A DNA stretch of 64,000 bases, taken from assembly GCA_963832165.1 (NCBI GenBank), contig CAWHTE010000001.1:704001-768000 (forward strand). The letters are read 5' to 3'. Below are positions 2,866 through 54,424 of this stretch, piece by piece. The number at the start of each line of letters is the position of its first letter. Position 1 is the stretch's first letter. Source of the stretch: an uncultured delta proteobacterium. Its GTDB lineage: Bacteria > Myxococcota_A > UBA9160 > SMWR01. The notes below the pieces were generated by a model, which ran no database searches, had not been told where the DNA came from, and was given only the letters and a program-made list of their open reading frames with translations. Made by a program: the position numbers and the translations under genes.

Positions 2866-3054
2866 CGCTGTGCGGGTCCTCGAGATGGTTTCGACGCATT
2901 CGGCCGGCAACTTGACCGCGGAGGTCGCGAACGGCCGGCCTTTTCCGCTCATTCGCGTGCTTTGACTATCGCTGCGCCCCGCGGATACTCCGGAGCGGTC
3001 CGCGAAACGCCGGATCCCGCGTCGGGACCGGCAACCCCGAATGGAGGTCGTTCC

Positions 3055-3318
3055 GTGAGAAATCGAAGTGCACTCGTGGCGTCGGCGGCCGCGGCGTTGT
3101 TCCTGGCCGGCGTTGCCGGCGCAGCCCACGCGGAAGAGGGCGCGGCTCCGGCGAAGGTCAAGTGCGAAGGCGTGAACTCGTGCAAGGGCCACAGCGACTG
3201 CAAGACGGCAGGGAGCTCCTGCAAGGGTCAGAACAGCTGTGCGGGCAAGGGCTACCAGATGATGTCCGCAGCCGAGTGCGAGGCCGCCAAGGCCGCCAAG
3301 GCGGCTCAGAAGAAGTAG
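3055..3318 (+). CDS. bufA: Bufferin-type (six-Cys, BufA2-like) RiPP metallophore precursor with Sec signal peptide
   Basis: GGAGGT RBS then GTG; signal peptide ending AHA; core KCEGVNSCKGHSDCKTAGSSCKGQNSCAGKG...EC; directly upstream of DUF692 and DUF2063 genes. Confidence 0.85.
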   Translation: MRNRSALVASAAAALFLAGVAGAAHAEEGAAPAKVKCEGVNSCKGHSDCKTAGSSCKGQNSCAGKGYQMMSAAECEAAKAAKAAQKK

Positions 3319-3324
3319 GTCTGT

Positions 3325-3366
3325 CGAGGGAAGAGGGGGTGGGTCGCTCCACCGCCTCTTCCCTCG
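3325..3366 (+). terminator. Strong stem-loop between precursor and modifying-enzyme genes (partial terminator or mRNA stabiliser)
   Basis: CGAGGGAAGAGG pairs with CCTCTTCCCTCG, inner GGTGG/CCACC, 6-nt loop; no U-tract. Confidence 0.6.
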
Positions 3367-3409
3367 TGTCGCGAGGCCCGATCCGCGTGATCTCGACCGA
3401 AGCGCCGAC

Positions 3410-4321
3410 GTGAGCGCGAGCCGCGTTCCCTTCCTGGGTGTGGGCGTCGGTCTGCGCCCGAAGCACTACCCGGCGATCCTCGCAGCGCCGGATCCGGTCC
3501 GGCTCGGCGTCGACTTCTTCGAAGCGCTCTCCGAGAACTACATGGTGCCCGGGGGCCGTCCGCCGCGCGTGCTCGCGGAAGTGCGCGCGCACTTCCCCGT
3601 CGTGCTGCACGGCGTCTCGCTGAACGTGGGCTCGGCCGATCCGCTCGACGCGAACTATCTCGACGAGCTCGCAGAGCTCGCGCGCCGCTACGAGCCCGCA
3701 TGGCTCTCCGACCATCTGTGCTGGACCGGCGTGCGCGGGCACAACCTCCACGATCTCCTGCCGCTCCCGTACACGGAAGCCGCGCTGGCCTACGTGGCAG
3801 AGCGCGCGATGCGCGTCCAGGACCGGCTCGGGCGCCAGATCGCGCTCGAGAACGTGTCGTCGTATCTCGCCTATCAGGCCGATGCGATGCCGGAATGGGA
3901 GTTCGTCGCACGCGTCGCCGAGCGCGCCGACTGCGGGATCCTGCTCGACGTGAACAACGTGTTCGTGAGCGCCCACAATCACGGCTTCGACGCCGAGCGC
4001 TATCTCGCCGCAATCCCGCCCGAGCGAGTGTTCCAGATCCACCTGGCCGGGCACTCCGAGCAGGGCGCGATGAAGATCGACACCCACGATCACGCGGTGT
4101 GCGACGAGGTCTGGGCGCTGTTCGAGATGGCGGTGCGCCGGCTGGGACCCGTGTCGACGCTGATCGAGTGGGACGACCGGATCCCCGAGTTCGAGGTCCT
4201 GGTCGCCGAGGCGGCGCGCGCGAGAGCGATCCTCTCGACCGCGACGCGAGAGGGGAGAGGGGATGACGCGGGCGCTCGACTCGCTTCAACACCAGCTCTG
4301 GCAGCTGATCACCGCGCCTAG
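3410..4321 (+). CDS. bufB: DUF692 family multinuclear non-heme iron oxidase (MNIO), bufferin maturase
   Basis: GVGLRPKHY, ENYM, HGVSL, SDHLCW, ENVSSY, LLDVNN, IHLAGH, IDTHD, IEWD motifs. Confidence 0.93.
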   Translation: MSASRVPFLGVGVGLRPKHYPAILAAPDPVRLGVDFFEALSENYMVPGGRPPRVLAEVRAHFPVVLHGVSLNVGSADPLDANYLDELAELARRYEPAWLSDHLCWTGVRGHNLHDLLPLPYTEAALAYVAERAMRVQDRLGRQIALENVSSYLAYQADAMPEWEFVARVAERADCGILLDVNNVFVSAHNHGFDAERYLAAIPPERVFQIHLAGHSEQGAMKIDTHDHAVCDEVWALFEMAVRRLGPVSTLIEWDDRIPEFEVLVAEAARARAILSTATREGRGDDAGARLASTPALAADHRA

Positions 4322-5108
4322 CGGGGCCGTGGCCGCGCTCGCAGAGCACGGCGATGCGGGCGGCCACGAGCTCGCCGCGCTCGTGCGCGGCGACCGCGGT
4401 CTCGCGCCGGCGGCGCGGCTCGAGATCTACGCGAACGCCTACTTCGCGCGCATCCACGATGCTCTGCGCGACGACTTCTCGGCGCTCGCGCGCGCGCTGG
4501 GTGCGGACGCATTCCACGATCTCGTGAAGACGTACCTCATGATGCACGCGCCGGAGCACGCGTCGCTGCGCCTCGCCGGGGCGCACCTTTCCGAGCATCT
4601 CAGGGCGCCGCCGTTCGCGGAGATCTTCGCGCGTCGCTGCCCCTACGCCGCCGATCTCGCGCGGCTCGAGTGGGCGATCAGCGAGGCGTTCTTCGCCGCG
4701 GACGCGCCCATCGTCGCGCGTGCCGAGCTCGCGGCGCTCGCGCCCGAGGCATGGGCCGATGTCCGCTTCGAGACGGCTCCGTCGCTGCGGCTCCTCGAGT
4801 GCGCGTGGCCGGTGCAGATCGCGCGCGAGCGCTGCGATGCGGAAGGCGGCGAAGCCACCTGGGACGAGGCCCCGGCGTTGCCCGCCGAGCCGACCTGTCT
4901 GCGCGTGTGGCGGCGCGACGAGCGGGTCCACTACCGGTCGATCCCGCGGCTCGAGCTCGAGGCGCTAGGCGGCGCGCGCGCGGGCGAGACATTCGCCGCG
5001 CTCTGCGATCGCGTGGCGTCGGCCGTGGGAGAAGTCGAGGCGGCATCCCGGGCTGCGGCGCTGCTCTCGTCGTGGAGCTCCGATGGACTGCTCGCGCGCC
5101 TGCGCTGA
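4263..5108 (+). CDS. bufC: DUF2063 (HvfC/BufC-type) MNIO partner protein
   Basis: RLEIYANAYFARIHDALRDDF, LGADAF, ADLARLEWA; follows DUF692. Confidence 0.85.
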   Translation: MTRALDSLQHQLWQLITAPSGAVAALAEHGDAGGHELAALVRGDRGLAPAARLEIYANAYFARIHDALRDDFSALARALGADAFHDLVKTYLMMHAPEHASLRLAGAHLSEHLRAPPFAEIFARRCPYAADLARLEWAISEAFFAADAPIVARAELAALAPEAWADVRFETAPSLRLLECAWPVQIARERCDAEGGEATWDEAPALPAEPTCLRVWRRDERVHYRSIPRLELEALGGARAGETFAALCDRVASAVGEVEAASRAAALLSSWSSDGLLARLR

Positions 5109-5124
5109 GCTCACTCGTTCGCGA

Positions 5125-6975
5125 TCACAGCTGCGCGATGGCCTCGAACGAGAGCCGGCCAAATGTCTGGGTCGACGATCGCAGCAGGTTCTCGAGCACT
5201 CGGATCTTGACCTCGGGCGCGGAGTGCTCGAGCGAATCGAACGCGGAGCGCTCGAGCACCCAGCACACCGCGGGAGCATCCGCGCGCACGGAGGCGCTGC
5301 GCAGAGATCCCTCCACCATCGACGGCTCACCGAAACCCATGCCGGCCGAGAGCGTCGAGAGGCGCCGCTGACGGCCGTCCGGCATGTCGGCGAGGACGCT
5401 GAGCTCGCCGAGCACCAGCAGGAACAGCTCGTTGGCGACTTCTCCGCGCCGGACCACCATGTCGCGCGCGCGGTACGAGCGCCGCTCCATGAGCCCGCGC
5501 AGCAGCTCGATCTGCTCGAGGCTGAGGTTCTGCAGCATTTCGTGCTTGCCGAGCGGGATCTCGTCGCGCTTCTCGAGCGCGACGCCCGCGGTGCGCAGCG
5601 TGCCGTTCTCGCACCATTCGAGCGCGAGGTCGTACTCGTCGAAAACCGATATCTGCAGCTCCGGCTCGTGCGCGCGCGCTTCCTGGAGCAGACGCAAGAG
5701 GCGTGGGTGGCGCGCGAGCCCGACGAGCGCCATGCCGCGATTGCGCGCGGAGAGCGAGGTGAGCAGCTCCAGGAGCATTCGCGCAGCCGGCACATCGACG
5801 GCGGCCACGCGCGAGAAATCCAGCACCAGATGGCTGACGGCCGCGGCGCTCTCCGACGATCCTGCGGATCACGAACTCCATGCCCGCAAAGGTCAGATCG
5901 CCCTGCAGCTGATAGGTGACGATCTGGTCGCCGCGCTGCGGCGAGCATCTCGCGCTCTCCGTCGAGCCGCTTGCGCTTGGACGAGAAGGTCCGCGCCGTG
6001 AAGCGCGAGCGCACCGCCGAGATCGCGAGGTGGGGTGCGCGCAGGAAGTGCAGCTCGAGGTCCTCGGACATCGCTTCGCACACGGCCACTCCGCGCACGC
6101 TGTTCCCGCGCACGTCGAGCGGCGGCGAGAACACGCCGATCGCGAGCTGGCCCGGCATCACGGCGAGAATGCCTCCCGCGACGCCGCTCTTGGCCGGCAG
6201 GCCGACCCGGTAGACCCACTCGCCGGCATAGTCGTACATGCCGCACGTCGTCATGACGGAGAGGACCTCGTCCACGTTCTCGGTGCGGATCACGCGATCG
6301 CGGGTCACGGGGTTCACACCGCCCCTCGCCAGCGTCGCGCCGATGATCGCGAGATCGCGGCAGTTCACCTCGATCGAGCACTGTCGGAAGTAGAGATCGA
6401 GGTCGGGCTCGGGATCGCGCTCGATGATCGAGAAGTTCCGCAGCATGTGGCTGATCGCGCGATTGCGATGGCCCGTCTCGCGCTCGGACCGGTAGACCGC
6501 CTCGGACAGGCTGAGCTGCCGCCCCGCGTACAGCGAGAACAGCGCGAGGATGCGCGCCCAGCGGTCCTCGACCGAATCGCCCACCACGAGCGACGATGCC
6601 GCGATCGCCCCCGCGTTGATCATGGGATTCCGCGGGCGCCCAGAGCTGGACTCGAGGCTGATCTCGTTGAACGCGTCGCCGGTGGGCTCGACGCCGATGC
6701 GCCGGAGCACGGCGGGTTTGCCCTGGTCCTCGAGGGCGAGCCCGTAGACGAAGGGCTTGGAGATCGACTGGATCGTGAACGCCTGGCGCGTATCGCCGAC
6801 CTCGTAGACGTAGCCGTCCACGGTCGCCAGGCTGATCCCGAACCAGCGCGGGTCGGCACCGGCGAGCTCGGGGATGTAGGTGGCGACCGTCCCCGTCTTC
6901 GAGCGTCCGGAAGCGCTCGTACAGGGAGCGCAGGTAACGCGCGATCGGGGAGTGGTCCGGCGCCGTGATGGCCAT
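5125..6975 (-). pseudogene. glsA: Glutaminase A with STAS-like and cyclic-nucleotide-binding domains; interrupted by three +1 frameshifts (~6892, ~5936, ~5854), possibly sequencing errors
   Basis: VATYIPEL, FTIQSISKPF (catalytic SxxK), NPMINAGA, CGMYDY, PAKSGVAGG; then LQGDLTFAG / LVLDFSRV (STAS); then GMGFGE...RSASV (cNMP), spread over four frame segments. Confidence 0.85.
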
Positions 6976-7117
6976 GGTCCTACCTCACATGGACGGGTTC
7001 GAGCTCAACGGAGCAAACGGCGTGCCCGTCTTTCGAACGCGCAAGGCGATCTGCAGACCGTTCTTGCACCATCGCGCGGCAGTCGGCGCCCACGAAGCGT
7101 GCGGCTAGCATGCGACC

Positions 7118-9286
7118 ATGTCGCTGCTGTCGCGGCTGCGCGCCCCGGGTGCCGCCAGTGTCACGCTCGCGAGCGTCGCGCTGGTCTTCGGACTGCATTG
7201 GGTCAACGTTCCGCTGCTCGACCAGATCGAGCGCAACACCTACGACATGCGCTTCCAGTCGCGCGGGGTCGTCGCCCCGGCTCCGGAGGTGGTCCTCGCG
7301 GTCGTCGACGAGAAGAGCCTCGACGCGTTCGGGCGGTGGCCCTGGTCGCGCGCGCGCATGGCCGAGGTCGTGGACGCGCTCTCCGCAGCCGGCGCACGCG
7401 TGATCGCGTTCGACATCGGCTTCCTCGAGCCCGAGGGCGCGGGACCCGACGGCGCCCTCGCGCGCTCGATCGCGCGCTCGCCCGCGGACGTCGTGCTCGG
7501 GTACTTCTTCAACGATCCGACCGAGAAGGGGGCTCACGCGGCCGACCCGGCTGCGCTGGAGCGCGCGCTCGAGCCGATCTCGTTCACCGCGCTCACCGTC
7601 CGCTACCGCGGCAGCTCGCCCGACGCGATGCCGTTTCACCGCGGCGACGCGCCCGAAGCCAACCTGCCCGAGATCACAGCCGCTGCCGAGGGAGCCGGAT
7701 ATTTCAATATCCGGCCCGACAAGGACGGCGTGGTGCGGCGCACACCGCTGGTCATGGGCGTTGGAGTGGACGCCTACCCCTCGCTCGCGCTCGAAGCCGC
7801 GTGGTATGCGCTGGGGCGTCCGCCACTCGTTGTGGAGGTGGCGCAGAGCGGGAGCGAGAACCTGGTCACCGGGATCTCGCTCGGCGACCAGGTGATGCCG
7901 ACCGATGCGCGTGGCGAGGCCCTGCTCTCGTTCGCGGGGCCGGCCGGGACCATCCCGCACGTCTCGGTCGCCGACATCCTCGCGGGGACGGTCGCCGAAG
8001 ACAGGCTGCGTGATCGCGTCGTGATCGTCGGCGTGACGGCCACCGGAGTCTTCGATCTGCGCGCTACGCCGTTCTCCGAGGTCTACCCGGGTGCCGAGGT
8101 GCAGGCGACGGCGCTCGACAACATCCTGCGCAACCGATTCATCACGCGGCCGGGTTGGGCGAGCCTCGCCGATCAGGTCGCGATCGTGTTGCTGGGCGCG
8201 GCGACCGCACTCGCGGTCTCGCGTCTCGGCCCGGTGTCGGAGCTCCTCGCAGCGCTGGCGATCGCGGCAGCTTACGTCGGACTGGCGATCCGGCTGTTTT
8301 CCGCGAACGGACTCTGGCTCGGCCTGGTTCATCCCCTGCTCGCCGTCGGCGTCACCTACACCTCGCTCACCGTACGCGGCTATCTCGTCGAGCAGCGCGA
8401 GCGCCGCAAGGTCGCCAACGCCTTTGGTCAATACGTTTCCCCCGTCGTGATCGAGCAGATGCTGGCGAACCCGAGTCAGCTCCGGCTCGGAGGCGAGGAG
8501 CGCGTGCTCACTGTGCTCTTCTGCGACATGGCGGGCTTCACGACCATCGCCGAGCGGCTCACCCCGACGCAGACGATCGAGCTGCTCTCCGAATTCCACG
8601 CGCGCATGACGGAGCGGATCTACGCCTGCGAGGGGATGCTGAAGGAGTACGTGGGCGACGAGGTGATGGCGATCTTCGGCGCGCCGGTCGTGCAGCCCGA
8701 CCACGCGGTGCGCGCCTGTCGAGCCGCGCTCGCGATGCGCGACGCGCGCGCGCAGCTCTCGGCCGAATGGGCGCAGCGCGGTTATCCGCCGATCCGCTCG
8801 CGCACCGGCGTGAACTCGGGCGCGATGCTGGTCGGGAACATCGGCTCCCGCTATCGCTTCTCGTACGGCGTGGTCGGCGACGCCGTGAACCTGGGCTCGC
8901 GCATCGAGGGACTGAACAAGCTCTACCGCACCGAGATCCTGATCGGAGAGCAGACCGAGGTGATGCTCGGCGACGCATTCCGGCTGCGCGAGGTCGACGC
9001 GGTGCGGGTGCTCGGCAAGAAACTTCCCGTGCGAATTTTCGAGCTCCTCGGCGAGGCGGGCGAGACGCTCGATCCCCGGCGCGAGAAGCTCCTCGATCAC
9101 TACGCCACGGGCCTCGCCGCCTACCGCGAGCGGCGCTTCGACATCGGCCTCGCCGAATTCGAGGCGGCGCTCGCGCTCGTGCCCGACGACGGACCCAGTC
9201 AGACGCTGGCGGAACGCTGCCGAGTATTTCGGACAGCGCCGCCGGCGCAGGACTGGGACGGCGCCTACCAGGCGACCGAGAAATAG
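7118..9286 (+). CDS. CHASE2-domain membrane class III nucleotidyl cyclase (guanylyl-type specificity residues) with C-terminal TPR-like tail
   Basis: CHASE2 motifs GRWPWSR, DGVVRR, PGAEVQA; TM helices; cyclase motifs LFCDMAGFT, KEYVGDEVM, YGVVGDAVNLGSRIE. Confidence 0.92.
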   Translation: MSLLSRLRAPGAASVTLASVALVFGLHWVNVPLLDQIERNTYDMRFQSRGVVAPAPEVVLAVVDEKSLDAFGRWPWSRARMAEVVDALSAAGARVIAFDIGFLEPEGAGPDGALARSIARSPADVVLGYFFNDPTEKGAHAADPAALERALEPISFTALTVRYRGSSPDAMPFHRGDAPEANLPEITAAAEGAGYFNIRPDKDGVVRRTPLVMGVGVDAYPSLALEAAWYALGRPPLVVEVAQSGSENLVTGISLGDQVMPTDARGEALLSFAGPAGTIPHVSVADILAGTVAEDRLRDRVVIVGVTATGVFDLRATPFSEVYPGAEVQATALDNILRNRFITRPGWASLADQVAIVLLGAATALAVSRLGPVSELLAALAIAAAYVGLAIRLFSANGLWLGLVHPLLAVGVTYTSLTVRGYLVEQRERRKVANAFGQYVSPVVIEQMLANPSQLRLGGEERVLTVLFCDMAGFTTIAERLTPTQTIELLSEFHARMTERIYACEGMLKEYVGDEVMAIFGAPVVQPDHAVRACRAALAMRDARAQLSAEWAQRGYPPIRSRTGVNSGAMLVGNIGSRYRFSYGVVGDAVNLGSRIEGLNKLYRTEILIGEQTEVMLGDAFRLREVDAVRVLGKKLPVRIFELLGEAGETLDPRREKLLDHYATGLAAYRERRFDIGLAEFEAALALVPDDGPSQTLAERCRVFRTAPPAQDWDGAYQATEK

Positions 9287-9293
9287 CGCTCCG

Positions 9294-10094
9294 TTACAGG
9301 CAGGGCGGTCTGGGATCGGAGAGGCTCTTGCAGTCGCACATGGTGTAGAGCCGGCCGCCCACGATCCGGTTGGTGCACGACTCGTCCCCGTTGGAGAAGG
9401 CGCTGCCTTCCTTGAACCACGTGCCGTTTCCGATCGACTGGCCGTTGATCTCCACGTTCATGGACTCCGGCGGCAGACCGTTCGCGACCAGCTTGCAGCC
9501 AGGGCCCGTGACCGTCGCCGGGAGGCCCTTGCCCGTGAACGGGTCGGTCGGGATCGTCAGCGAGCAGTCTTTGAATTCGAGCGTCTCGGTCGTGGTGATC
9601 TGCGCGTGCGGATCGAAGACCTCGGTGCCCAGCGTGGCGATGCGACACTGCTCGACCACCTTGCCCTTCTTCACCACGATCGACCCATGGATCGGGGCAA
9701 GCGCGCCCACGACGACGAGATCGAACGGGCCGGTCTTCTGCTGATTCTGGTTGATCCGCGACGTCTGGTTGGCGCAGTCCCGCAAGGCAAGACCCGACAC
9801 GTTGTCGCCAGCGCACGGAGGGCTGTCGAAGTTGCTCGGCGGGATCACGATCACCGGTTCCCAGTCGACGGTGATCGCGACGTGATCGGGCGTCTCGCCG
9901 CGGTGCGGCGTGATGTTGTACGTCATGCCCGTGCATCGTTCGGCCGGGCAGGGAACCGCGTCGAACGGGGCGGTCGCGGTCACGGTCCATCCGCCGCCGC
10001 TCGTTCTGCACTGGAGGACGGGCTCCGATGCAGCGGCCGAGGCTGCCGCGAACAGTATCGCCGCGGAGATCACGCAGGTGAGTCGAGTGTTCAT
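9294..10094 (-). CDS. Secreted Cys-rich hypothetical protein
   Basis: Signal peptide (AASAAA-S), about a dozen Cys, typical codon usage; 42 bp downstream of the receptor gene. Confidence 0.75.
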   Translation of the reverse strand: MNTRLTCVISAAILFAAASAAASEPVLQCRTSGGGWTVTATAPFDAVPCPAERCTGMTYNITPHRGETPDHVAITVDWEPVIVIPPSNFDSPPCAGDNVSGLALRDCANQTSRINQNQQKTGPFDLVVVGALAPIHGSIVVKKGKVVEQCRIATLGTEVFDPHAQITTTETLEFKDCSLTIPTDPFTGKGLPATVTGPGCKLVANGLPPESMNVEINGQSIGNGTWFKEGSAFSNGDESCTNRIVGGRLYTMCDCKSLSDPRPPCL

Positions 10095-10136
10095 GTCTGT
10101 CCCTCTCTATACAACTTGGAGTGAAGCAGCCCCGCG

Positions 10137-13100
10137 CTACGGCAACGCCAGGGTGACCTTGCCATAGAAGAGCCTGCCCGGTCGCAGGTCCGGATTGTGG
10201 ATGTCGGTGGCCTGGTACGGCCCATCTTCGTCGAGGAAGTTGTTCACTCCGAACGCGACGAAACCGTAGCGCCGCGGCAGGCGGTACCGGATACCCGCGT
10301 CGTACATCCAGAAGTCGCGGTGGCCGTCTTCGAAGGCGAGCGTCGTATTGCGCAGGAACTCTCCATCCTGGTCCAGATACGTGGCGCCGAACGAGAGGCT
10401 CACGCCCGACGGATGGAACAGCTGGACGCCGAGCGGAACCCGGTGGGTGTCGACGTCGCTGAACCCATACGCGCCGGCCAGCAGGTCATCGAGCCGGAAC
10501 TGCTCGAACTGATACTCCGCGCGCAGCGCAATCCAGTCGTGAGGCGTGATGAAGAGGTAGGTGCGCGCGATCTTCTCGCGCGCGGGCTCGCGCGTCACCA
10601 CGATACCGCCCGCACCGACGATCTGGTTCGGGACCTGGAGATCGCGCCAGGAGCCCTCGACGCCCGCGAAGACGTGGCTTCCGAACTTCTGGTCGATCGC
10701 CGCGCCGTAGCGCCACGACGACGTGCCCGACGGATCGTCGTAGAACTGGTTGAAGCCGGCCACCTGCGTCGGCTCGAGCGTCTGCTGGTTCACCAGCGTG
10801 CGCTTGAGCGCGCGGAAGCCGGCCGCGCGGAACGTCGTTCCCGGCGAGAACGACGGGGTCCAGGTGAGGCCGCCCTTCGGGTTGGCCTGGTCGCGATGGC
10901 CGATGCCCTCTTCTTCGTGAAAGAAATCGCCGCTCACCCCGAGCGTCATCGACACGTTCGCGGGCAGCGCCGTGTACGTGTAGAGATAGGCGTTGTTGTG
11001 GTCGACGTTGGGCGCGCGCAGCGCCTGCGGGATGACCTGCGGATCATCCGGCACGCCGCCGGTGAACGTCAGCAGGGTGATCGTCTCGTCGACGTCGAGG
11101 CCGACCGTGCCCGCGCCGGCGACGGTCTGGACGCGGTCGACCCATCCGCCCGTGACCGAGGACAGGTCGTGGCGGTGGATCAGCTGCCCCTCACCGTTGT
11201 ATCCCGCCTCTTCCGTGTTGATGTCGCTCGAGAAGCCGAAGTCCGTGAAGACGGGATCAGTCGAGAAATCCTCGGAGTCGCCGCTGCGCTCCTCGTAGGC
11301 GAGCGAGAGCAGCGCGATCGTGTCGGCCGAGAACGCATGGCGCAGCCCGGTCCGGAAGCTCCCCGTCTCGGTGCGCTCGTCGAGGTCGCGGCTGAAATCG
11401 TCCTCGAGGAATTTCAGCGCGAGGTCGCCGTTCTCGAGGTGGCGGTAGCGGAACTCGCCCTGGACGCTCGTCTCCGGTGTCACCTGGAACTGGGCGAACG
11501 CGTTGGCGACGTTGTCCTTCTGTTCGTTGTTGGACCGGAAGCCATCGGTCCAGTACCCGCTGTAGCCGGCGGAGAACGAGAGCCGGTCGTGGATCGCCGA
11601 GACGATCCCCTCGCCGGCGTAGGTTTCGTCCTCGCCGAACAGGCCGTTGCCCTGCACCGCGACGCGGTTGCGCTCGAAGAGCGGATTGAACTCGGTGAAC
11701 GAGAGGTTCGAGGGACCCTGCGACGAGAGCAGGAACAGGCTGCCCTCGCCCTGGCGCGGCTGGATCGGCACCAGATTGTTCGGCTGGAGCATCTGCGCCT
11801 GGAACAGCTCGGAGACGCGCGCGATCTCGTGGCGCGGCTGGGAGGCGTAGGAGTCCGCGAGCAGGCGGTGGGCCGAGTGATTGCTGACGTCGGTCCCGAC
11901 GGATTTCCAACCCTCGACGAGCGCAAGGCTCTGGAAGCCGAGGTCTCCGTAGATCCGGCCGAGGCTCGCGCTGCGCGCGGCCTCGTCGGAGTCGAGCAGC
12001 AGGCGCGAGCGGTTCACGGCGCGGTTGTCGTTGCGCGCGATCGCCTCTTCCACGCTGTGCAGCGCCTGGACGGGCCGATTCGTGGTCTGCTCGGCGATCG
12101 CCTGGTAGAACCAGGGCGTCGGGTCGTTCGGATCGAGCTGCTTCGCGGTCTCGAATTCGCGCATGTCGAGACCGTCGCGCTTCTCCTCGTAGTAGGCCTT
12201 TCCGAGATAGCTGCGGATCGTCGCGTCGTTCGCGTCGAGGCTCGCGGCCACCTCGATCTCGCGCGCGCCTGCGGCGAGATCGCCGCTGCGGATCTTCGCG
12301 AGCCCGAGCCCGAGTCGCGGCATCGGGTCGGCCTGGTCGAGGTCGATCGCGCGTTCGAAAGCCATCCGCGCGGCGTCCGTCTCGACCCGGGTCAGATGCG
12401 CGAAGCCGAGCACCGTCTGGGTGCGCGAGAGCTTCGAGTCGAGCGACGCGGCGCGCTCCGCGGCGGCGAGCGCCCCGCGCAGATCGCCGAACGAGGCGCG
12501 CAGCTCGGCGACGCGCGCCCATGCGAGCGCGTTGTCCTTCTCGAGCTTCACCGCCCGCTCGGCGCTCGCGCGCGCGCCCTCGAGATCGAAGCGCGCCTGC
12601 TGTACGTAGGACGAGGCGATCTGCGCCGCTGCCGACTTCGGATCGGCGGCGACCGCGCGGTCGGCTGCGGTCTGCGCGTCCTCGCTGCGATTCTGCGCGA
12701 CGGCGATCACCGCCTGGAGCGACAGCGCATCGGGATCGTTCGGCGCGAGCTCGAGCGCTCGCGTGAGATCGGCGTTGGCCTCGTCGATGCTGCCCACCGC
12801 GAGGCGCTGCGAGGCGCGCTGCGCGAGCGCACGCGCGCTCCCATCCTCTGCTGCGGCCGCGCCCGGCGCGAGCACCGGCGGGTAGTAGAGCGCCCACTGC
12901 ACCGCGTCGCGCGGGCGCGCGACCAGCCGCGGCGCGGGCGCTTTGCCTGCCTCGGCGATCGCCGACGCGCCGGCTGCGAGCATGAGCTCGCCCGCCGCGT
13001 TCGCCGTCTGCACGCTGCCCTCGAAGACGGTGACTTCGCTGCGTCCCTCTTCGACTGCGACGAAGAACTCGGTGCCGCGCACGCCGGCCACCGCGTAGGG

Positions 13101-13502
13101 CGTGTTGACTTCGAGATTGCGTTCGCCGCGTCGGCTCAGGAAGTGGGCGGCGCCGCGCGAGAGATCGACCAGGTACTTGTCGTCCTCGGCGCCGGAGAGC
13201 GTCATCTCGGTGCGCGCGCGCAGGCGCAGCACCGACTGATCGAAGAGAGACAGGTCTGCCCGGCTGCGATCGCCCGCGCGCACCGTGTCGCCCGCGCAGA
13301 ATGCGCGATCGCGCTCGACGGGCTGCCAGTCGCTCGCGCCGGCGGGCCGCACCTCGATGACGCCCTGCACCGAGACGGCGCGCGCGACCGGCGGATCGCA
13401 GGTCGCGGACGACGCGCGCTCCCCGGCGCACACGACGCAGGCGATCGTGAGCGCGGAGGTCAGGGTAGGGATGTAGTAGTTGAGCCTGAAGGCCAACGGC
13501 AT
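10137..13502 (-). CDS. FecR-domain / TPR-repeat / TonB-dependent-receptor-like outer-membrane beta-barrel protein (NsrA-like architecture)
   Basis: FecR motif TPYAVAGVRGTEF, multiple Ala-rich TPRs, C-terminal amphipathic beta-strands (DAGIRYRLP...GVNNFLD); start uncertain (13502 or 13523). Confidence 0.85.
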   Translation of the reverse strand: MPLAFRLNYYIPTLTSALTIACVVCAGERASSATCDPPVARAVSVQGVIEVRPAGASDWQPVERDRAFCAGDTVRAGDRSRADLSLFDQSVLRLRARTEMTLSGAEDDKYLVDLSRGAAHFLSRRGERNLEVNTPYAVAGVRGTEFFVAVEEGRSEVTVFEGSVQTANAAGELMLAAGASAIAEAGKAPAPRLVARPRDAVQWALYYPPVLAPGAAAAEDGSARALAQRASQRLAVGSIDEANADLTRALELAPNDPDALSLQAVIAVAQNRSEDAQTAADRAVAADPKSAAAQIASSYVQQARFDLEGARASAERAVKLEKDNALAWARVAELRASFGDLRGALAAAERAASLDSKLSRTQTVLGFAHLTRVETDAARMAFERAIDLDQADPMPRLGLGLAKIRSGDLAAGAREIEVAASLDANDATIRSYLGKAYYEEKRDGLDMREFETAKQLDPNDPTPWFYQAIAEQTTNRPVQALHSVEEAIARNDNRAVNRSRLLLDSDEAARSASLGRIYGDLGFQSLALVEGWKSVGTDVSNHSAHRLLADSYASQPRHEIARVSELFQAQMLQPNNLVPIQPRQGEGSLFLLSSQGPSNLSFTEFNPLFERNRVAVQGNGLFGEDETYAGEGIVSAIHDRLSFSAGYSGYWTDGFRSNNEQKDNVANAFAQFQVTPETSVQGEFRYRHLENGDLALKFLEDDFSRDLDERTETGSFRTGLRHAFSADTIALLSLAYEERSGDSEDFSTDPVFTDFGFSSDINTEEAGYNGEGQLIHRHDLSSVTGGWVDRVQTVAGAGTVGLDVDETITLLTFTGGVPDDPQVIPQALRAPNVDHNNAYLYTYTALPANVSMTLGVSGDFFHEEEGIGHRDQANPKGGLTWTPSFSPGTTFRAAGFRALKRTLVNQQTLEPTQVAGFNQFYDDPSGTSSWRYGAAIDQKFGSHVFAGVEGSWRDLQVPNQIVGAGGIVVTREPAREKIARTYLFITPHDWIALRAEYQFEQFRLDDLLAGAYGFSDVDTHRVPLGVQLFHPSGVSLSFGATYLDQDGEFLRNTTLAFEDGHRDFWMYDAGIRYRLPRRYGFVAFGVNNFLDEDGPYQATDIHNPDLRPGRLFYGKVTLALP

Positions 13503-30981: not shown

Positions 30982-30997
30982 GGGCACGAGAATTGCT
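30982..30997 (+). promoter_or_regulatory. Sigma54 (-24/-12) promoter of PEP-CTERM gene
   Basis: GGGCAC-GAGAA-TTGCT matches TGGCAC-N5-TTGCW. Confidence 0.7.
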
Positions 30998-31083: not shown

Positions 31084-31786
31084 ATGCGAATCCCCGCACC
31101 CGTTGCGCTGGTAATGCTCTTCGCGGCGTTCGTTCAGCCCGCGGCCGCCCTCATGATCGACAACTTCGAAGAGGGCAACATCACCCTCACCGATCTCCAG
31201 CTCGGGGAGCTTCTCGGATCAGGAGGCCTCCGGTCTCAGCAGCGCCAACGTGATCGGCGGCACGCGTTTGAGCCGTGCGACGGTGAGCACCACGGGTCTG
31301 GTCGCCTCGGCCTCAGCATTCCTCTCCCCGACGGCCGCCGATGACAGCGTCGCGTTCACGGTGCTGGGCGTACCCGACGGCCAGGGTCTGTTTCAGTTCT
31401 ACTACGACGGCATCCCGAATCTCACGCCCGATAACACGGGCGGCGCGCTCAATCTCGATCTGTCCGCGCTCACCCACCTCGAAGTCACCGCACTCGCCGT
31501 GAATGTCACCGCCAGCGCGCAGTTCACCCTCTGGACGTCAGCTGGGGCGGGGAACACGCTGCTGCTCCCGCTCGCGAACGGGGTAACCCTGTTCCCGCTC
31601 AATACGGCCGGACTGGCCGGACTGAATCTGGCCGACATCCAGCAGATCCGCTTCACGCTCTCGGCCGTCGATCTGCTCGAGGCACCCGCGATCAGCAACA
31701 TCGCCGCGGTGCCGGAGCCCGCGTCCGGCCTGCTCGTCGCCGCGGGGCTGGTGGGTCTCGCGCTGCGCCGCAGGACCTCGCGCTAG
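31084..31786 (+). CDS. PEP-CTERM secreted protein, split by one +1 frameshift at ~31195-31250
   Basis: AGGAAGGA RBS and signal peptide in the first frame; VPEPASGLLVAAGLVGLALRRR C-terminus in the second frame. Confidence 0.8.
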
Positions 31787-40204: not shown

Positions 40205-40930
40205 ATGCTGCGTTCCCCTGCCGTTTCGCTCGCTGCCCTCCTGCTCAGTGCAGCTTCACCCGCTGCCGCCGTGACGATAGGTTTTGAGGAGTTCGCGCAC
40301 GGCGACATTGTCGCGGCGCCCGTCGCGTCCCATGCGGGCTACACGCTCGTCGTGGAGAACCTTTCCAGGACGTTCGACGCCGGGGTCGCGTTCGACACCG
40401 GCGAGACGGGTACCGCCGACCTCGATCTCGAGCGCGGCAGCGGCTTCGCGACCGGAAACATCGCGGATGGGGTTCTCGGCAACATCCTGGTGCTGCAGGA
40501 GCGCGACAACTGCAGCGCGACGAGCTGCTCCGACCCGGACGACGAGGCCAGACGGCCGGCCGGGGAGTTCACGTTCCTGCTCGACGAGATCGCAACGGGC
40601 GGGTTCTCGTTCGATCTGGTCGACGTGGATGACGAAACCGCCGAAAATGGCCGGATCACGTTCCTCTTGTTGGAGAACGGCCAGGTCGACGTGTCGGTGG
40701 CGTCCTACTCGTTCGCGGAGTTCCTGGGCTTCGGGCAGGACGTCGACTACGGCAACAACTCGGCCAATCACATCGAGTTCACGGAGCTGGGCGCATTCAA
40801 CGCGTTCACGATCGTGATGGGCGGCTCGGGCGGGATCGACAACATCGTCGCGGTGCCCGAGCCGACTACCGGAGCACTGCTCGTCCTCGGCTTGATCGGT
40901 CTCGCCGCGTATACGCACCGTCGCCGCTGA
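40205..40930 (+). CDS. PEP-CTERM secreted protein
   Basis: Signal peptide; acidic body; VPEPTTGALLVLGLIGLAAYTHRRR. Confidence 0.9.
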   Translation: MLRSPAVSLAALLLSAASPAAAVTIGFEEFAHGDIVAAPVASHAGYTLVVENLSRTFDAGVAFDTGETGTADLDLERGSGFATGNIADGVLGNILVLQERDNCSATSCSDPDDEARRPAGEFTFLLDEIATGGFSFDLVDVDDETAENGRITFLLLENGQVDVSVASYSFAEFLGFGQDVDYGNNSANHIEFTELGAFNAFTIVMGGSGGIDNIVAVPEPTTGALLVLGLIGLAAYTHRRR

Positions 40931-47285: not shown

Positions 47286-47301
47286 TGGCACGACAGTTGC
47301 T
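47286..47301 (+). promoter_or_regulatory. Sigma54 (-24/-12) promoter of PEP-CTERM gene
   Basis: TGGCAC-GACAG-TTGCT, perfect consensus, in an AT-rich intergenic region. Confidence 0.8.
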
Positions 47302-47337: not shown

Positions 47338-47988
47338 TTGCTGTCTCGAATGCTCTCGCTCCCCGCGCTCGCTGTGGTGCTGCTGGTCGCGGGCTCGGCC
47401 TCGGCGATCTCGACCATCTACGACATGTCCGGGTCGACGATGACGATGACCAACCAGGCGTGCCCCGGGGTTCCCCCGTGCACCGTGGCCGTGACCGGCA
47501 CGCTCACGCTCGACGACGACCTCGGCGGCAACGTCTCGCTCACGGATTTGAACCTGGCTCATGAGCCCTACCAGGTGGGGAGCCCGGTCTTCGTCAACGT
47601 GTTCATCGATCGCGACAGCATCACGCTCACCTCCCCTCCGGTCCTGGGTACCGGCACCACGCTCAACGGCAACACCGCATTCGGGTCCGCCTCGATCACG
47701 CAGGTCGGCACGACCAACTGCTCGGACGGTCTGCTCGCCACGTGTGCTCTCGCGGGTCTTCCGCCGGGCAGCAGCCCGCTCACGTCGCCGATTGTCATCG
47801 ACCTCGGGAACTGGGCGTTCAATGGGCTCGGCATTCTGACCGCGAATATCACGTACACCAACAACGCGAACCCGCCTGCTACCGAGATCCTGTACCTGTA
47901 CGGCACGCCGGTGCCCGAGCCCGCGACGGCGGTGCTCATGGTGATGGGCCTGGTCGGGATGGCGATCCGCCGCCGCATGGAGCGCTGA
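47338..47988 (+). CDS. PEP-CTERM secreted protein
   Basis: AAGGAGG RBS; signal peptide; VPEPATAVLMVMGLVGMAIRRR. Confidence 0.9.
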   Translation: MLSRMLSLPALAVVLLVAGSASAISTIYDMSGSTMTMTNQACPGVPPCTVAVTGTLTLDDDLGGNVSLTDLNLAHEPYQVGSPVFVNVFIDRDSITLTSPPVLGTGTTLNGNTAFGSASITQVGTTNCSDGLLATCALAGLPPGSSPLTSPIVIDLGNWAFNGLGILTANITYTNNANPPATEILYLYGTPVPEPATAVLMVMGLVGMAIRRRMER

Positions 47989-50833: not shown

Positions 50834-50954
50834 TTCGTCGACCGAAGCGCGGCGCAGCACGGGGACCGTTCGATCCGCCTCGGGGTACCCTCTTCAGTCG
50901 CTGCGAATCCCCGGAATGGGGTAGGATTTGCTCGAGCCGCGCCCCGTCTTTTCA

Positions 50955-52463
50955 ATGAAAAAGCCCCCCCCGACTGTCTTGCGCTCCGCACCTCGCGCCG
51001 AGACCGGCGTCGAGGGGCTCGACCACGTGCTAGGCGGTGGGCTCACGCCGGGCCAGCTCTACGTGCTCGAAGGCCTGCCCGGAACGGGCAAAACCACCCT
51101 CGCGCTGCAGTTCCTGCTCGAAGGAGTGCGGCGCGGAGAGTCGGTTCTGCACGTGACCCTCTCGGAGACCACCCCGGAGCTGTACTCGATCGCTGCCTCG
51201 CACGGCTGGTCGCTCGAAGGGATCCAGATCCACCAGGTGCTGGCGGACACCAAGCTCCTCGACGCAGACGAAAACACGGTATTCCATCCATCCGAGGTCG
51301 AGCTGAGCGAAGCGATCCGGCCGATCCTCGCGCAGGTCGAGCGGCAGAAGCCAGCGCGCGTAGTGCTCGACTCTCTGTCGGAGATCCGCCTGCTGGCCGG
51401 CTCCGCGCTGCGCTTCCGGCGGCAGTTGCTCTCGCTCAAGCAGTACTTCACGGGCCGCGACTGCACCGTGCTCGTGCTGGACGACCGGACCTCCGGCGAC
51501 CCGGACTTCCAGGTGCAGAGCATCGCCCACGGCGTGATCCAGCTCGATCAGCAGAACCCGGAATTCGGAGCAGAACGACGCCGCATGCTCGTGTGCAAGT
51601 TCCGCGGCGTGCAGTTTCGCGGTGGCTTTCACGACTTCCAGCTCCGTCGCGGCGGGATCAGGATCTTCCCGCGACTCGTCGCCGCCGAACACCGCCAGGT
51701 GCTGCCGGCCGGAAAGCTCGAGAGCGGGGTTCCCGAGCTCGACAAGCTGCTCGGTGGTGGAGTCGATCAGGGCATGAGCACGCTCTTCGTCGGCGCTGCG
51801 GGAACCGGCAAGTCGTCGTTGGTGGCGCAGTTCGTCGTGGCAGGGGCCGCTCGCGGCGAGACCAGCGTGATGTTCCTCTTCGACGAGAGCGTCGCCACGC
51901 TGCTCGGGCGCTGCGACGGTCTCAACATTCCGCTGCGGCGCCACGTCGAATCGGGTCTCGTGAAGGTACGACCGATCGATCCTGCCGAGCTCTCGCCCGG
52001 CGAATTCAGCCAGGCCATCCGCACTGCCGTCGAGGTCGATAAAGCCGCGATCGTCGTGCTGGACAGCCTGAACGGGTTTCTCAACGCGATGCCCGGAGAG
52101 CGCTTCCTGACCCTCCAGCTGCACGAGATTCTCTCCTACCTGGGTCAGCAGGGTGTCGCCACGCTGTTGGTCGCGGCGCAGCAGGGCTTGATCGGCCAGC
52201 AGATGAACACCCCGATCGATGCCACCTTCCTGGCCGACGCCGTGGTGTTGATGCGCTACTTCGAGATGCACGGGGAGATCCGCCAGGCGATCTCGGTGGT
52301 CAAGCGCCGCGGCGGAGAACACGAGCGCACGATCCGCGAGTTTCGGCTCAAGGCCGGAGGCATTCAACTCGGCGAGCCCTTGCGCCAGTTGCGCGGCGTG
52401 CTTACTGGAGTTCCGATCTTCGAGGGATCGGGCGATCCATTTCTGTCGACGAAATCGACATGA
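50955..52463 (+). CDS. KaiC-like double-domain RecA-superfamily ATPase
   Basis: Walker A GLPGTGKT and GAAGTGKS; KFRG; IRQAISVVKRR. Confidence 0.9.
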   Translation: MKKPPPTVLRSAPRAETGVEGLDHVLGGGLTPGQLYVLEGLPGTGKTTLALQFLLEGVRRGESVLHVTLSETTPELYSIAASHGWSLEGIQIHQVLADTKLLDADENTVFHPSEVELSEAIRPILAQVERQKPARVVLDSLSEIRLLAGSALRFRRQLLSLKQYFTGRDCTVLVLDDRTSGDPDFQVQSIAHGVIQLDQQNPEFGAERRRMLVCKFRGVQFRGGFHDFQLRRGGIRIFPRLVAAEHRQVLPAGKLESGVPELDKLLGGGVDQGMSTLFVGAAGTGKSSLVAQFVVAGAARGETSVMFLFDESVATLLGRCDGLNIPLRRHVESGLVKVRPIDPAELSPGEFSQAIRTAVEVDKAAIVVLDSLNGFLNAMPGERFLTLQLHEILSYLGQQGVATLLVAAQQGLIGQQMNTPIDATFLADAVVLMRYFEMHGEIRQAISVVKRRGGEHERTIREFRLKAGGIQLGEPLRQLRGVLTGVPIFEGSGDPFLSTKST

Positions 52464-54424
52464 GTGACACCGGTGGATTCGAAACGCGAGTTGTGGTGCT
52501 CGCCCCGACCGGTAGGGACGGGGAGCTGATTCGATCCGTCCTGGGCAAGGCCGAAATCGCGTCGGAGACCTGCGCCGACGTGGCTTCACTGTGCCGCGCG
52601 ATCGCCTCGGGTGCGGGTGCGGTGCTCCTGGCCGAGGAGGTGATCACCGGCGGCATGCCCGATTCGCTGATGGCGTGCTTCGCCGAACAGCCACCGTGGT
52701 CCGACCTGCCGATCCTCGTTCTCACCGAGCAAGGCGCCAGTTCCCCTGCGGCGCACCGGGCGATGGCTGATCTCGGGAACGTGACGTTGCTCGAGCGCCC
52801 GATCCGCGTGGCGGCGCTCGTGAGCAACGTGCGCTTCGCGTTGCGCGCGCGGCAGCGGCAATACCAGATCCGATCCCACCTCAGTGCCGTGGAGGAGGCT
52901 GCCAAGACGAGTGCGCGCCTCGCGGCCATCGTCGAGTCGTCGGATGACGCGATCGTGAGCAAGACACTCGACGGCGTGATCACCTCGTGGAACTCCGGCG
53001 CGGAGCGGCTCTTCGAGTACTCGGCGGAGGAGGCGATCGGCCAACCGATCCTGCTGATCATTCCGCCGGACAAGGCCGAAGAGGAGCAGTGGATCCTCCG
53101 CCGGCTGCGGCAGAACATTCCCGTCCAAAACTACGAAACCGAGCGCCTCGCCAAGTCCGGCCGCCGGGTCGACGTCTCGGTGAGCGTCTCGCCGCTACGC
53201 GACGCGAGTGGCCGCGTCGTGGGGGCTTCGAAAGTCGCGCGCGACATCGGCGCCCGCAAGCGCGCCGATGCCGCGCTCAAGGAGGCGGACCGGCGCAAGG
53301 ACGAGTTCCTCGCCACGCTCGCGCACGAGCTGCGCAATCCGCTCGCGCCGATCCGGACGTCGCTGCACATCCTGGAGCTCGCGAAGTCCAACGGCGCCAT
53401 CGACCCTGCGCTCGCCCCGACGCTCGAGATCATGGACCGGCAGGTCGATCACATCGTGCGGCTGGTCGACGACCTCCTGGAAGTCTCGCGCATCACCCGC
53501 GGCAAGATCGAGTTCCGACCCGAGACCGTCGAGCTCGACTCGGTGATCGAGAGCGCCGTCGAGACGAGCCGTCCGCTGATCGACGCGGCCCGCCACGAGC
53601 TGATCGTCGAGATTCCGCGCAAGAACCTGACTCTGGAAGCGGATCCGGTTCGCCTGAGCCAGGTATTCGCCAATCTGCTGAACAACGCGGCCAAGTACAC
53701 CGAGGAAGGTGGAACGATCTGGCTGACGGTGAGCGAAGAGAACTCCCACGTGCGGGTCGCCGTTCGCGATACGGGCGTCGGGATCGACGCCGAGATGCTC
53801 CCGCGCATCTTCGAGATGTTCTCGCAGGCCGATAACCGGCCGGAAGGACGCGCTCCGGAGGGTCTGGGCATCGGGCTGTGGCTCGTGCAGAATCTCGTGG
53901 CGATGCACGGCGGCAGCGTCGGCGCGCGGAGCGGCGGAATCGGAATGGGCAGTGAGTTCGTCGTGCAGCTCCCGCGCGTGGCAGAGGCGCGAGCCTCCGC
54001 AGCCGAGCCACCCCGAGCGCGCTTCGTCGACGAGTCACTGTCCTGGTTGTCGGTGCTCGTCGTCGACGACAATCACGACGCTGCCGACAGCCTCGGCGCA
54101 CTGCTGCGATCGCTCGGCGCGAAAGTCCGGATTGCCTACGACGGTCCTTCCGCGCTGAAGCTCGTCGCGGAGGATCTGCCCGGCGTCGCGCTGCTCGACA
54201 TCGGGATGCCGGGCATGGACGGCTACGAGGTCGCGCGACGGATTCGGGAAGAGCCCCAGTATCGGGACGTCACGCTGATCGCGCTCACGGGGTGGGGTCA
54301 GGAAAAGGATCGCCTGCGCGCGGAGCAGGCCGGGTTGGACCACCACATCGGCAAGCCCGCCAAGGTGGCCGAGCTCCAGGAGCTGATGCTCTCGATCCGC
54401 CGCGATCGGGCCGCGACCGAATGA
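52460..54424 (+). CDS. Hybrid sensor histidine kinase (pseudo-REC, PAS, HisKA, HATPase, REC)
   Basis: ATGA overlap with kaiC-like gene; LAHELRNPL, NLLNNAAKY, GLGIGL, LLDIGMPGMDG. Confidence 0.92.
   Translation: MSDTGGFETRVVVLAPTGRDGELIRSVLGKAEIASETCADVASLCRAIASGAGAVLLAEEVITGGMPDSLMACFAEQPPWSDLPILVLTEQGASSPAAHRAMADLGNVTLLERPIRVAALVSNVRFALRARQRQYQIRSHLSAVEEAAKTSARLAAIVESSDDAIVSKTLDGVITSWNSGAERLFEYSAEEAIGQPILLIIPPDKAEEEQWILRRLRQNIPVQNYETERLAKSGRRVDVSVSVSPLRDASGRVVGASKVARDIGARKRADAALKEADRRKDEFLATLAHELRNPLAPIRTSLHILELAKSNGAIDPALAPTLEIMDRQVDHIVRLVDDLLEVSRITRGKIEFRPETVELDSVIESAVETSRPLIDAARHELIVEIPRKNLTLEADPVRLSQVFANLLNNAAKYTEEGGTIWLTVSEENSHVRVAVRDTGVGIDAEMLPRIFEMFSQADNRPEGRAPEGLGIGLWLVQNLVAMHGGSVGARSGGIGMGSEFVVQLPRVAEARASAAEPPRARFVDESLSWLSVLVVDDNHDAADSLGALLRSLGAKVRIAYDGPSALKLVAEDLPGVALLDIGMPGMDGYEVARRIREEPQYRDVTLIALTGWGQEKDRLRAEQAGLDHHIGKPAKVAELQELMLSIRRDRAATE

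Follow-up and report, generated by a model that had tools for sequence, protein, structure and literature searches.

The stretch of DNA considered here, called the window, comprises 64,000 nucleotides of contig CAWHTE010000001.1 and is part of a 5.5-Mb genome of 11 contigs with 70% GC. The records of close homologues are labelled Myxococcota or Deltaproteobacteria, with Spirochaetales in two records, and soil metagenomes contain pieces near-identical to the window. The subject of this report is a module of four adjacent genes, encoding a glutaminase fused to STAS and cyclic-nucleotide (cNMP)-binding domains, a CHASE2 cyclase, a secreted Cys-rich protein and a FecR-TPR protein with a predicted beta-barrel. 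A sequence-only reading of the window had proposed that they form a cyclic GMP (cGMP) signalling module across the envelope. A Pfam scan finds all four genes where that reading had placed them, and the gap of about 140 bp that it gave between the divergent starts of the cyclase and the glutaminase measures 142 bp (6976-7117).

The four genes and their products

The glutaminase gene lies at 5125..6975 on the minus strand and, when intact as in its relatives, encodes a glutaminase A, STAS and cNMP-binding fusion of about 615 residues. Pfam scores for the window pieces are E 4e-109 for the glutaminase domain and E 9e-17 for the cNMP domain, the latter at 5230..5484 on the minus strand (PF00027, E 7e-17). 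The STAS match is weak, being under the Pfam cut-off in the window piece and over it in intact relatives. The window glutaminase contains the catalytic motifs QSISK, NPMINAGA, E..TG.RN, YFRQC, GMYDY and KSGV, and its cNMP domain carries the phosphate-binding cassette FGEP..RSA, which agrees with the CAP-family pattern FGE...R[ST]A. Labels such as L062 or G054 are our own handles for related loci and genomes; the orthologue in L062 is an intact protein of 614 residues that scores 365 bits against a glutaminase A cut-off of 255 (PF04960/TIGR03814). SxxK is conserved throughout the full-length homologues (100 of 100), and 10 diverse family members do not vary at FGE or at R-x-A-x-V-x-A. Of 116 homologues, 106 match the cassette motif, 74 with RT, 26 with RS and 6 with a different residue; the remaining 10 do not match. 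By family score and motifs, the window glutaminase is predicted to be catalytically competent for glutamine hydrolysis.

The best solved match to the glutaminase domain is the salt-tolerant glutaminase of Micrococcus luteus (PDB 3AGD, E 3e-122), and no structure spans both the glutaminase and the cNMP parts among the best 60 of 263 PDB matches. Database entries already hold the fusion under the name 'glutaminase', with the same Pfam domains, and the family is spread over several phyla, Bradyrhizobium included. A related STAS-cNMP tail is borne by SulP transporters (L035 8489-10684 and L036 8375-10693), and such a tail is a possible source of the regulatory half of the glutaminase.

In the window, the glutaminase reading frame is broken into four pieces by three frame changes, and each change amounts to one surplus base in alignment with orthologues. 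The surplus bases were looked for in contigs at least 95% alike from four soil runs, at depths of 2-3. The base at 6895 (frameshift 1, a one-base gap against three orthologues) is missing from the sole covering contig (one of one run, depth 2), that at 5938 (frameshift 2) from the covering contigs in two of two runs, and that at 5847 (frameshift 3) in three of three. Because the extra bases are missing from every near-identical covering soil contig, the three frameshifts are, on this comparison, assembly errors. In the living strain the gene is almost certainly whole, so that the pseudogene, which the sequence-only reading had named as fatal to its proposal, has lost its ground. A true pseudogene would be barely conceivable. 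It could draw on the concentration of three frame changes in 1.85 kb, with none in the three neighbour genes (6.4 kb), and on the fact that the extra-base check relies on other contigs and not on this genome's own reads. Against it stand the covering contigs, the existence of intact orthologues, and the occurrence of frame changes across the genome. Comparison with 180 open reading frames of a same-genus genome, 88 with usable orthologues, gave frame changes in 12 of 88 pairs, amounting to 18 events in 106.5 kb, some clustered; a few of the 18 may be real insertions or alignment breaks.

The cyclase gene (7118..9286, plus strand) encodes a membrane-anchored protein of 722 residues with a CHASE2 domain (E 1e-62) and a class III cyclase domain (E 2e-20). 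Both metal-binding Asp residues and the Asn...Arg transition-state pair are present (FCDMAG, YVGDE and VNLGSR). The closest solved relative is Cya2 (2W01, E 7e-30), and Glu510 and Gly584 of the window protein align with its Glu and Gly at the base-specifying sites, Gly having its known role at the second of these. Cya2 is a CHASE2-regulated guanylate cyclase, which the E488K exchange converts into an adenylate cyclase (PMC5995499). Owing to these Cya2-type Glu and Gly residues the window cyclase is predicted to make cGMP, which lends support to what the sequence-only reading had put forward as probable. The Glu/Gly (E/G) pair occurs in all nine readable module cyclases, the window's included, and in one cyclase outside the module (L059); elsewhere in the order, all six complete CHASE2 cyclases that adjoin FecR genes have K/T. 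The genome has nine cyclases, of which the window cyclase alone is E/G, and two others are E/T and D/T. The second CHASE2 cyclase of the genome (G000:C7:306863-309658) carries Asp/Thr at the specificity sites, and the gene after it resembles, by eye, the DUF928 protein of L033. Seven bases 5' of the cyclase ATG (window 7105-7120) stands TAGCAT, seen in four of six loci inspected (the window, L061, L062 and, as TAACAT, L063), a possible -10 box for a transcript that lacks a leader.

The largest gene (10137..13502, minus strand) encodes a protein of 1121 residues with a FecR domain (E 1e-17) and TPRs in Pfam. The beta-barrel is assigned by inference from the profile alignment with the S. meliloti protein described below and from weak PF00593 matches in relatives; a crude hydrophobic-alternation scan did not distinguish the barrel region from the FecR domain. 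In Sinorhizobium meliloti, NsrA is an outer-membrane receptor needed together with CyaK to sense a plant protein (PMC7529298, PMC13001267). A protein of 1190 residues, annotated as a FecR-domain protein only, is encoded just before cyaK on pSymB, and from this place and its length it is taken as NsrA. HHalign aligns the window protein with it at 99.7% probability over 842 columns (25% identity). The likeness to NsrA that had been drawn from the window alone is thus extended over the whole chain, and by this profile alignment the window protein is a full-length NsrA homologue. The family is large, with 4441 matches among 7999 scored candidates, and no conserved motif was found in the upstream regions of the barrel gene in four loci.

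Between the cyclase and the barrel gene lies the gene of the secreted Cys-rich protein (9294..10094, minus strand), which has 266 residues, a hydrophobic N-terminus and 13 Cys. It belongs to an unnamed family of 29 homologues among 2382 candidates, with 11 invariant Cys in 28 aligned sequences, and it has no match in Pfam, NCBIfam, PADLOC or ESM Atlas. The family occurs in 3 of 225 genomes of the class, this one included. The predicted structure is all-beta, with an N-terminal immunoglobulin (Ig)-like sandwich (pLDDT, the per-residue confidence, 71; pTM, the predicted template modelling score, 0.51). Its fold relatives are generic Ig-like sandwiches (best Z 7.1, root-mean-square deviation 2.8, 95 aligned, residues 25-159), which is background level, and they were set aside. 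In G085 (L079 1069-3031), two tandem paralogues of the Cys-rich protein follow the barrel gene.

A new, conserved feature is a sigma-54 promoter motif before the glutaminase. GGCACG-N4-TTGCT, of the -24/-12 type, stands at 7012..7026 on the minus strand, 37 bp before the glutaminase start. The window holds three such motifs against 0.04 expected. In its strict form, the motif occurs upstream of 9 of 57 fused glutaminase loci and of 4 of 35 plain glutaminases, where 0.0008 would be expected per region, and it occurs zero times on the opposite strand of the glutaminase upstream regions. RpoN is encoded in this genome. A search for sigma-70 promoters and for a terminator excess found neither. The two other sigma-54-type motifs of the window, at 30983-30997 and 47287-47301 (plus strand), each stand shortly upstream of a PEP-CTERM gene (31250-31783 and 47338-47985), and the window has one more PEP-CTERM gene at 40205-40927.

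Recurrence of the gene set and its link to the glutaminase

A metagenome scan with the alignment of the Cys-rich protein recovered at least 13 loci. Among the 13 listed, the barrel gene lies directly upstream of the Cys gene in 11, and the other two contigs start only with the Cys gene itself. Ten of the 13 have the cyclase tail-to-tail with the Cys gene; two contigs end, and in the remaining locus (L065) the Cys frame continues into unrelated sequence. Six related loci have enough DNA to judge the linkage to the glutaminase, with the other eight metagenome loci and G085 undecided. A glutaminase-STAS-cNMP gene accompanies the module in five of the six, in two gene orders. L061, L062 and L063 have the order of the window. 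In L072 the glutaminase precedes the barrel and Cys genes, which converge with the cyclase, and L071 has, at the same position, a cNMP tail 69% identical to that of L072. Since the same set recurs in other contigs, its assembly is beyond chance. A single clade of the L062 and L072 glutaminases is rejected (approximately unbiased test, p 2.6e-5, 24 selected rows), and in quick trees the L062 glutaminase groups with unlinked relatives of its class. Because the two glutaminases do not form one clade, the link to the module either has been gained on two occasions or is ancient with frequent losses.

A wider survey took fused glutaminases gathered through glutaminase searches, with flanks of up to about 9 kb and home-made profiles. 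The set of 55 omits one fragment lacking a glutaminase match and five loci selected via the module, and two halves of one probable gene were merged; the 35 plain glutaminases are a sample of those found. A cyclase lies in the fetched flanks of 9 of the 55 fused glutaminases vs 0 of the 35 plain ones (Fisher p 0.011, or 0.039 once three kin are merged, with other kin left separate). The association of glutaminase and cyclase is real but optional. The co-occurrence expected by the sequence-only reading therefore holds within the module (five of six loci) and fails as an obligate rule, 46 of the 55 having no cyclase in the flanks.

Among the nine loci with a cyclase, that of G226, a gammaproteobacterial metagenome-assembled genome, combines the glutaminase with another secreted protein, a barrel protein of 47% identity and a CHASE2 cyclase that is E/S, Glu standing at the key position; L033 has the glutaminase-cNMP gene in one run with CHAT-TPR, CHASE2 cyclase and DUF928 genes; and L097, L106, L108 and L110 have non-CHASE2 cyclases directly downstream of the fused glutaminase. 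HWE-kinase, TRAP-transporter and dynamin neighbours of alphaproteobacterial glutaminases were considered and are not cyclases. On plasmid pAMI5 of Paracoccus aminophilus (L186 128-8028), genes for a TPR protein, a FecR protein and a CHASE2 cyclase are divergent from a cNMP-patatin. This pairing of a split module with a cNMP-patatin suggests exchangeable enzyme readers for such modules, and the glutaminase is itself an exchangeable reader, as most members of its family are without the module.

Around the module, a bufferin-type operon adjoins the glutaminase (2965-5108, plus strand), with its end 17 bp from the glutaminase stop. It contains a BufA2 precursor and a BufB-type MNIO maturase, both above cut-off, plus a DUF2063 protein. 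Farther along the window, at 50928-54421 (plus strand), a gene for a KaiC-like ATPase is followed by one for a PAS hybrid histidine kinase.

A proposed switch and its rivals

We propose, with somewhat better than even confidence, that the glutaminase is gated by cGMP from a sensor of the NsrA/CyaK type. The signal from outside, which may be the Cys-rich protein, would act on the outer-membrane barrel. By analogy with NsrA and CyaK, what the barrel senses would be a peptide or a protein, and the FecR/TPR portion in the periplasm would reach and activate CHASE2. The activated cyclase is predicted to make cGMP, which would bind the glutaminase's own cNMP domain and relieve inhibition rather than impose it, a direction guessed from other cNMP-fused enzymes. 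Glutamine hydrolysis would be switched on, with a fall in glutamine and a release of ammonium. A second, transcriptional input, possibly of nitrogen status, would come from the sigma-54 motif. From its gene position, the Cys-rich protein may be the cognate partner of the barrel, its ligand or an accessory subunit. The complete form of the proposal, a dedicated surface-to-metabolism switch in which the secreted Cys-rich protein is bound by the barrel as its own partner, cGMP formation is triggered across the periplasm and cGMP gates the glutaminase directly, is put forward tentatively, and we would sooner doubt it than rely on it.

Several observations weigh against cGMP gating. No phosphodiesterase gene is found among the four module genes. 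The RT that prevails in the family is the motif of the cGMP receptor CgrA (PMC10187061) and lends some weight to cGMP, but the window cassette is RS, which is CAP-like, and the cassette motif leaves a preference for cGMP undecided. G054 has the cyclase and the Cys gene without the glutaminase, its barrel gene being a remnant of 37 residues, and several of the supporting contigs are close kin. The 46 unlinked fused glutaminases include L031 and L032, which are 69-71% identical to L062 and have no cyclase within 8-10 kb on both sides; many of the other flanks are short. Cyclases linked to the glutaminase outside the module are mixed in their specificity residues (K/H, R/G, Q/A, E/S, and one without catalytic residues), and cGMP is therefore not family-wide. 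In L144 and L145 (about 5000-10500), a plain glutaminase stands among anti-sigma kinase, STAS, FecR, OmpA and CHASE2-SpoIIE genes. Finally, the genome encodes nine cNMP domains, including one Crp protein on another contig and others on a kinase and an oxidoreductase, and this Crp-family protein could be the output, as in S. meliloti.

The last of these leads to an explanation that we consider rather unlikely, in which the other three genes form an NsrA/CyaK-type unit with its output through Crp or other cNMP readers, and the glutaminase is an optional neighbour that reads the cell-wide pool of cAMP or cGMP. The Crp protein, the eight other cNMP domains and the nine cyclases of the genome speak for it, as do the many unlinked fused glutaminases, the glutaminase's own sigma-54 motif and the very large barrel family. 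It sits poorly with a linkage that survives rearrangement and non-sister glutaminases, and with a window cyclase that is the only E/G one in the genome. Improbable, in our view, is a cNMP domain with a structural role or another ligand, in a glutaminase whose activity is set by sigma-54 transcription and STAS and whose neighbours are there for regulatory or historical reasons. Such a neighbourhood need not act via a nucleotide, since the plain glutaminases of L144 and L145, with a sigma-54 motif upstream, adjoin FecR and CHASE2-SpoIIE genes; the sigma-54 motif precedes 4 of 35 plain glutaminases as well, and in two alphaproteobacterial genomes (L124 8400-9020 and L126 8240-9166) a stand-alone FecR gene comes right after glutaminase-STAS-cNMP with no adjacent CHASE2 cyclase. 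The invariant FGE and R-x-A-x-V-x-A residues and the widely matched cassette argue for a nucleotide ligand instead, and cyclases lie near fused, not plain, glutaminases.

More improbable still would be a defence or dormancy system like Pycsar, in which envelope damage or phage contact raises cGMP and growth is arrested as the glutaminase depletes glutamine. A cyclase with a cNMP-fused enzyme is the Pycsar layout, the distribution is patchy, judging by the few class genomes with the Cys family, and on pSymB of S. meliloti the nsrA-like gene has a PycTM (DUF5706) gene (L185 1558-2103) as its divergent neighbour. The PADLOC matches are nevertheless partial and at domain level, PycTIR models matching only the cNMP part of the glutaminase and PycC models part of the cyclase. 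In the window, the cNMP domain is fused to glutaminase-STAS and not to a PycTM or PycTIR effector. The cyclase is a membrane protein and has residues of the purine type, the module adjoins the bufferin operon and metabolic genes with no defence island, and the sigma-54 motif suits regulated metabolism.

Known systems and the meaning of the module

The system nearest to the proposed cGMP switch is the S. meliloti pathway, which runs from NsrA through CyaK, CyaD1 and CyaD2 to Clr (PMC7529298, PMC13001267, PMC5498481). The two share the full-length FecR-TPR-barrel homologue, a CHASE2 cyclase (31% identical to CyaK in the window) and the adjacency of the genes. They differ in that the window cyclase has Glu510 (E/G) where CyaK has Lys (DKYIGD), in that the barrel and cyclase genes converge in the window and are in tandem in S. 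meliloti, and in that the window adds the Cys-rich secreted protein and the glutaminase-cNMP gene, with no Crp gene within the locus. Cya2 of Synechocystis PCC 6803 has the same CHASE2-transmembrane-cyclase architecture, and its base-specifying Glu and Gly match those of the window cyclase in the alignment. In the accessible text of PMC10187061, no cGMP receptor is known for Cya2 and one is said to await discovery, whereas the window locus also encodes a candidate receptor and an outer-membrane input. In Rhodospirillum centenum, GcyB/GcyC and CgrA likewise make up a cGMP system in which the gene of the reader is close to the cyclase genes, and the RT motif of CgrA, likened here by motif and description, is common in the glutaminase-STAS-cNMP family; unlike the glutaminase, CgrA is a transcription factor (PMC4681086, PMC10187061).

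Among enzymes, the glutaminase of M. luteus (PDB 3AGD) probably shares a C-terminal STAS-like domain with the window protein and differs in having 456 residues and no cNMP domain. The mycobacterial acetyltransferase Pat, which is activated by cAMP, and the cNMP-patatins resemble the window protein in joining a cNMP domain to a metabolic enzyme, and there is a weak domain match to Pat. Pat is a different enzyme and uses cAMP rather than cGMP. We know of no dedicated envelope sensor described for cNMP-fused enzymes such as Pat. No literature on the glutaminase-STAS-cNMP fusion or its regulation was found, in a search with subscription papers and supplements largely outside its reach. As far as the accessible text of PMC10187061 goes, the bacterial cGMP receptors described are the transcription factors CgrA and Clr.

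If the proposal is true in its complete form, glutaminase-STAS-cNMP would be without precedent, in the literature searched, as a bacterial metabolic enzyme that reads cGMP, and it would belong to a group of plug-in enzyme readers that serve NsrA-type sensors. It would also offer a handle on what receives cGMP from Cya2-type cyclases. The module, with a candidate cognate partner alongside the barrel, would serve as a tractable model for the activation of CHASE2 cyclases by NsrA-type barrels. For the cell, a glutaminase switched by cGMP would tie envelope sensing to nitrogen flux without transcription.

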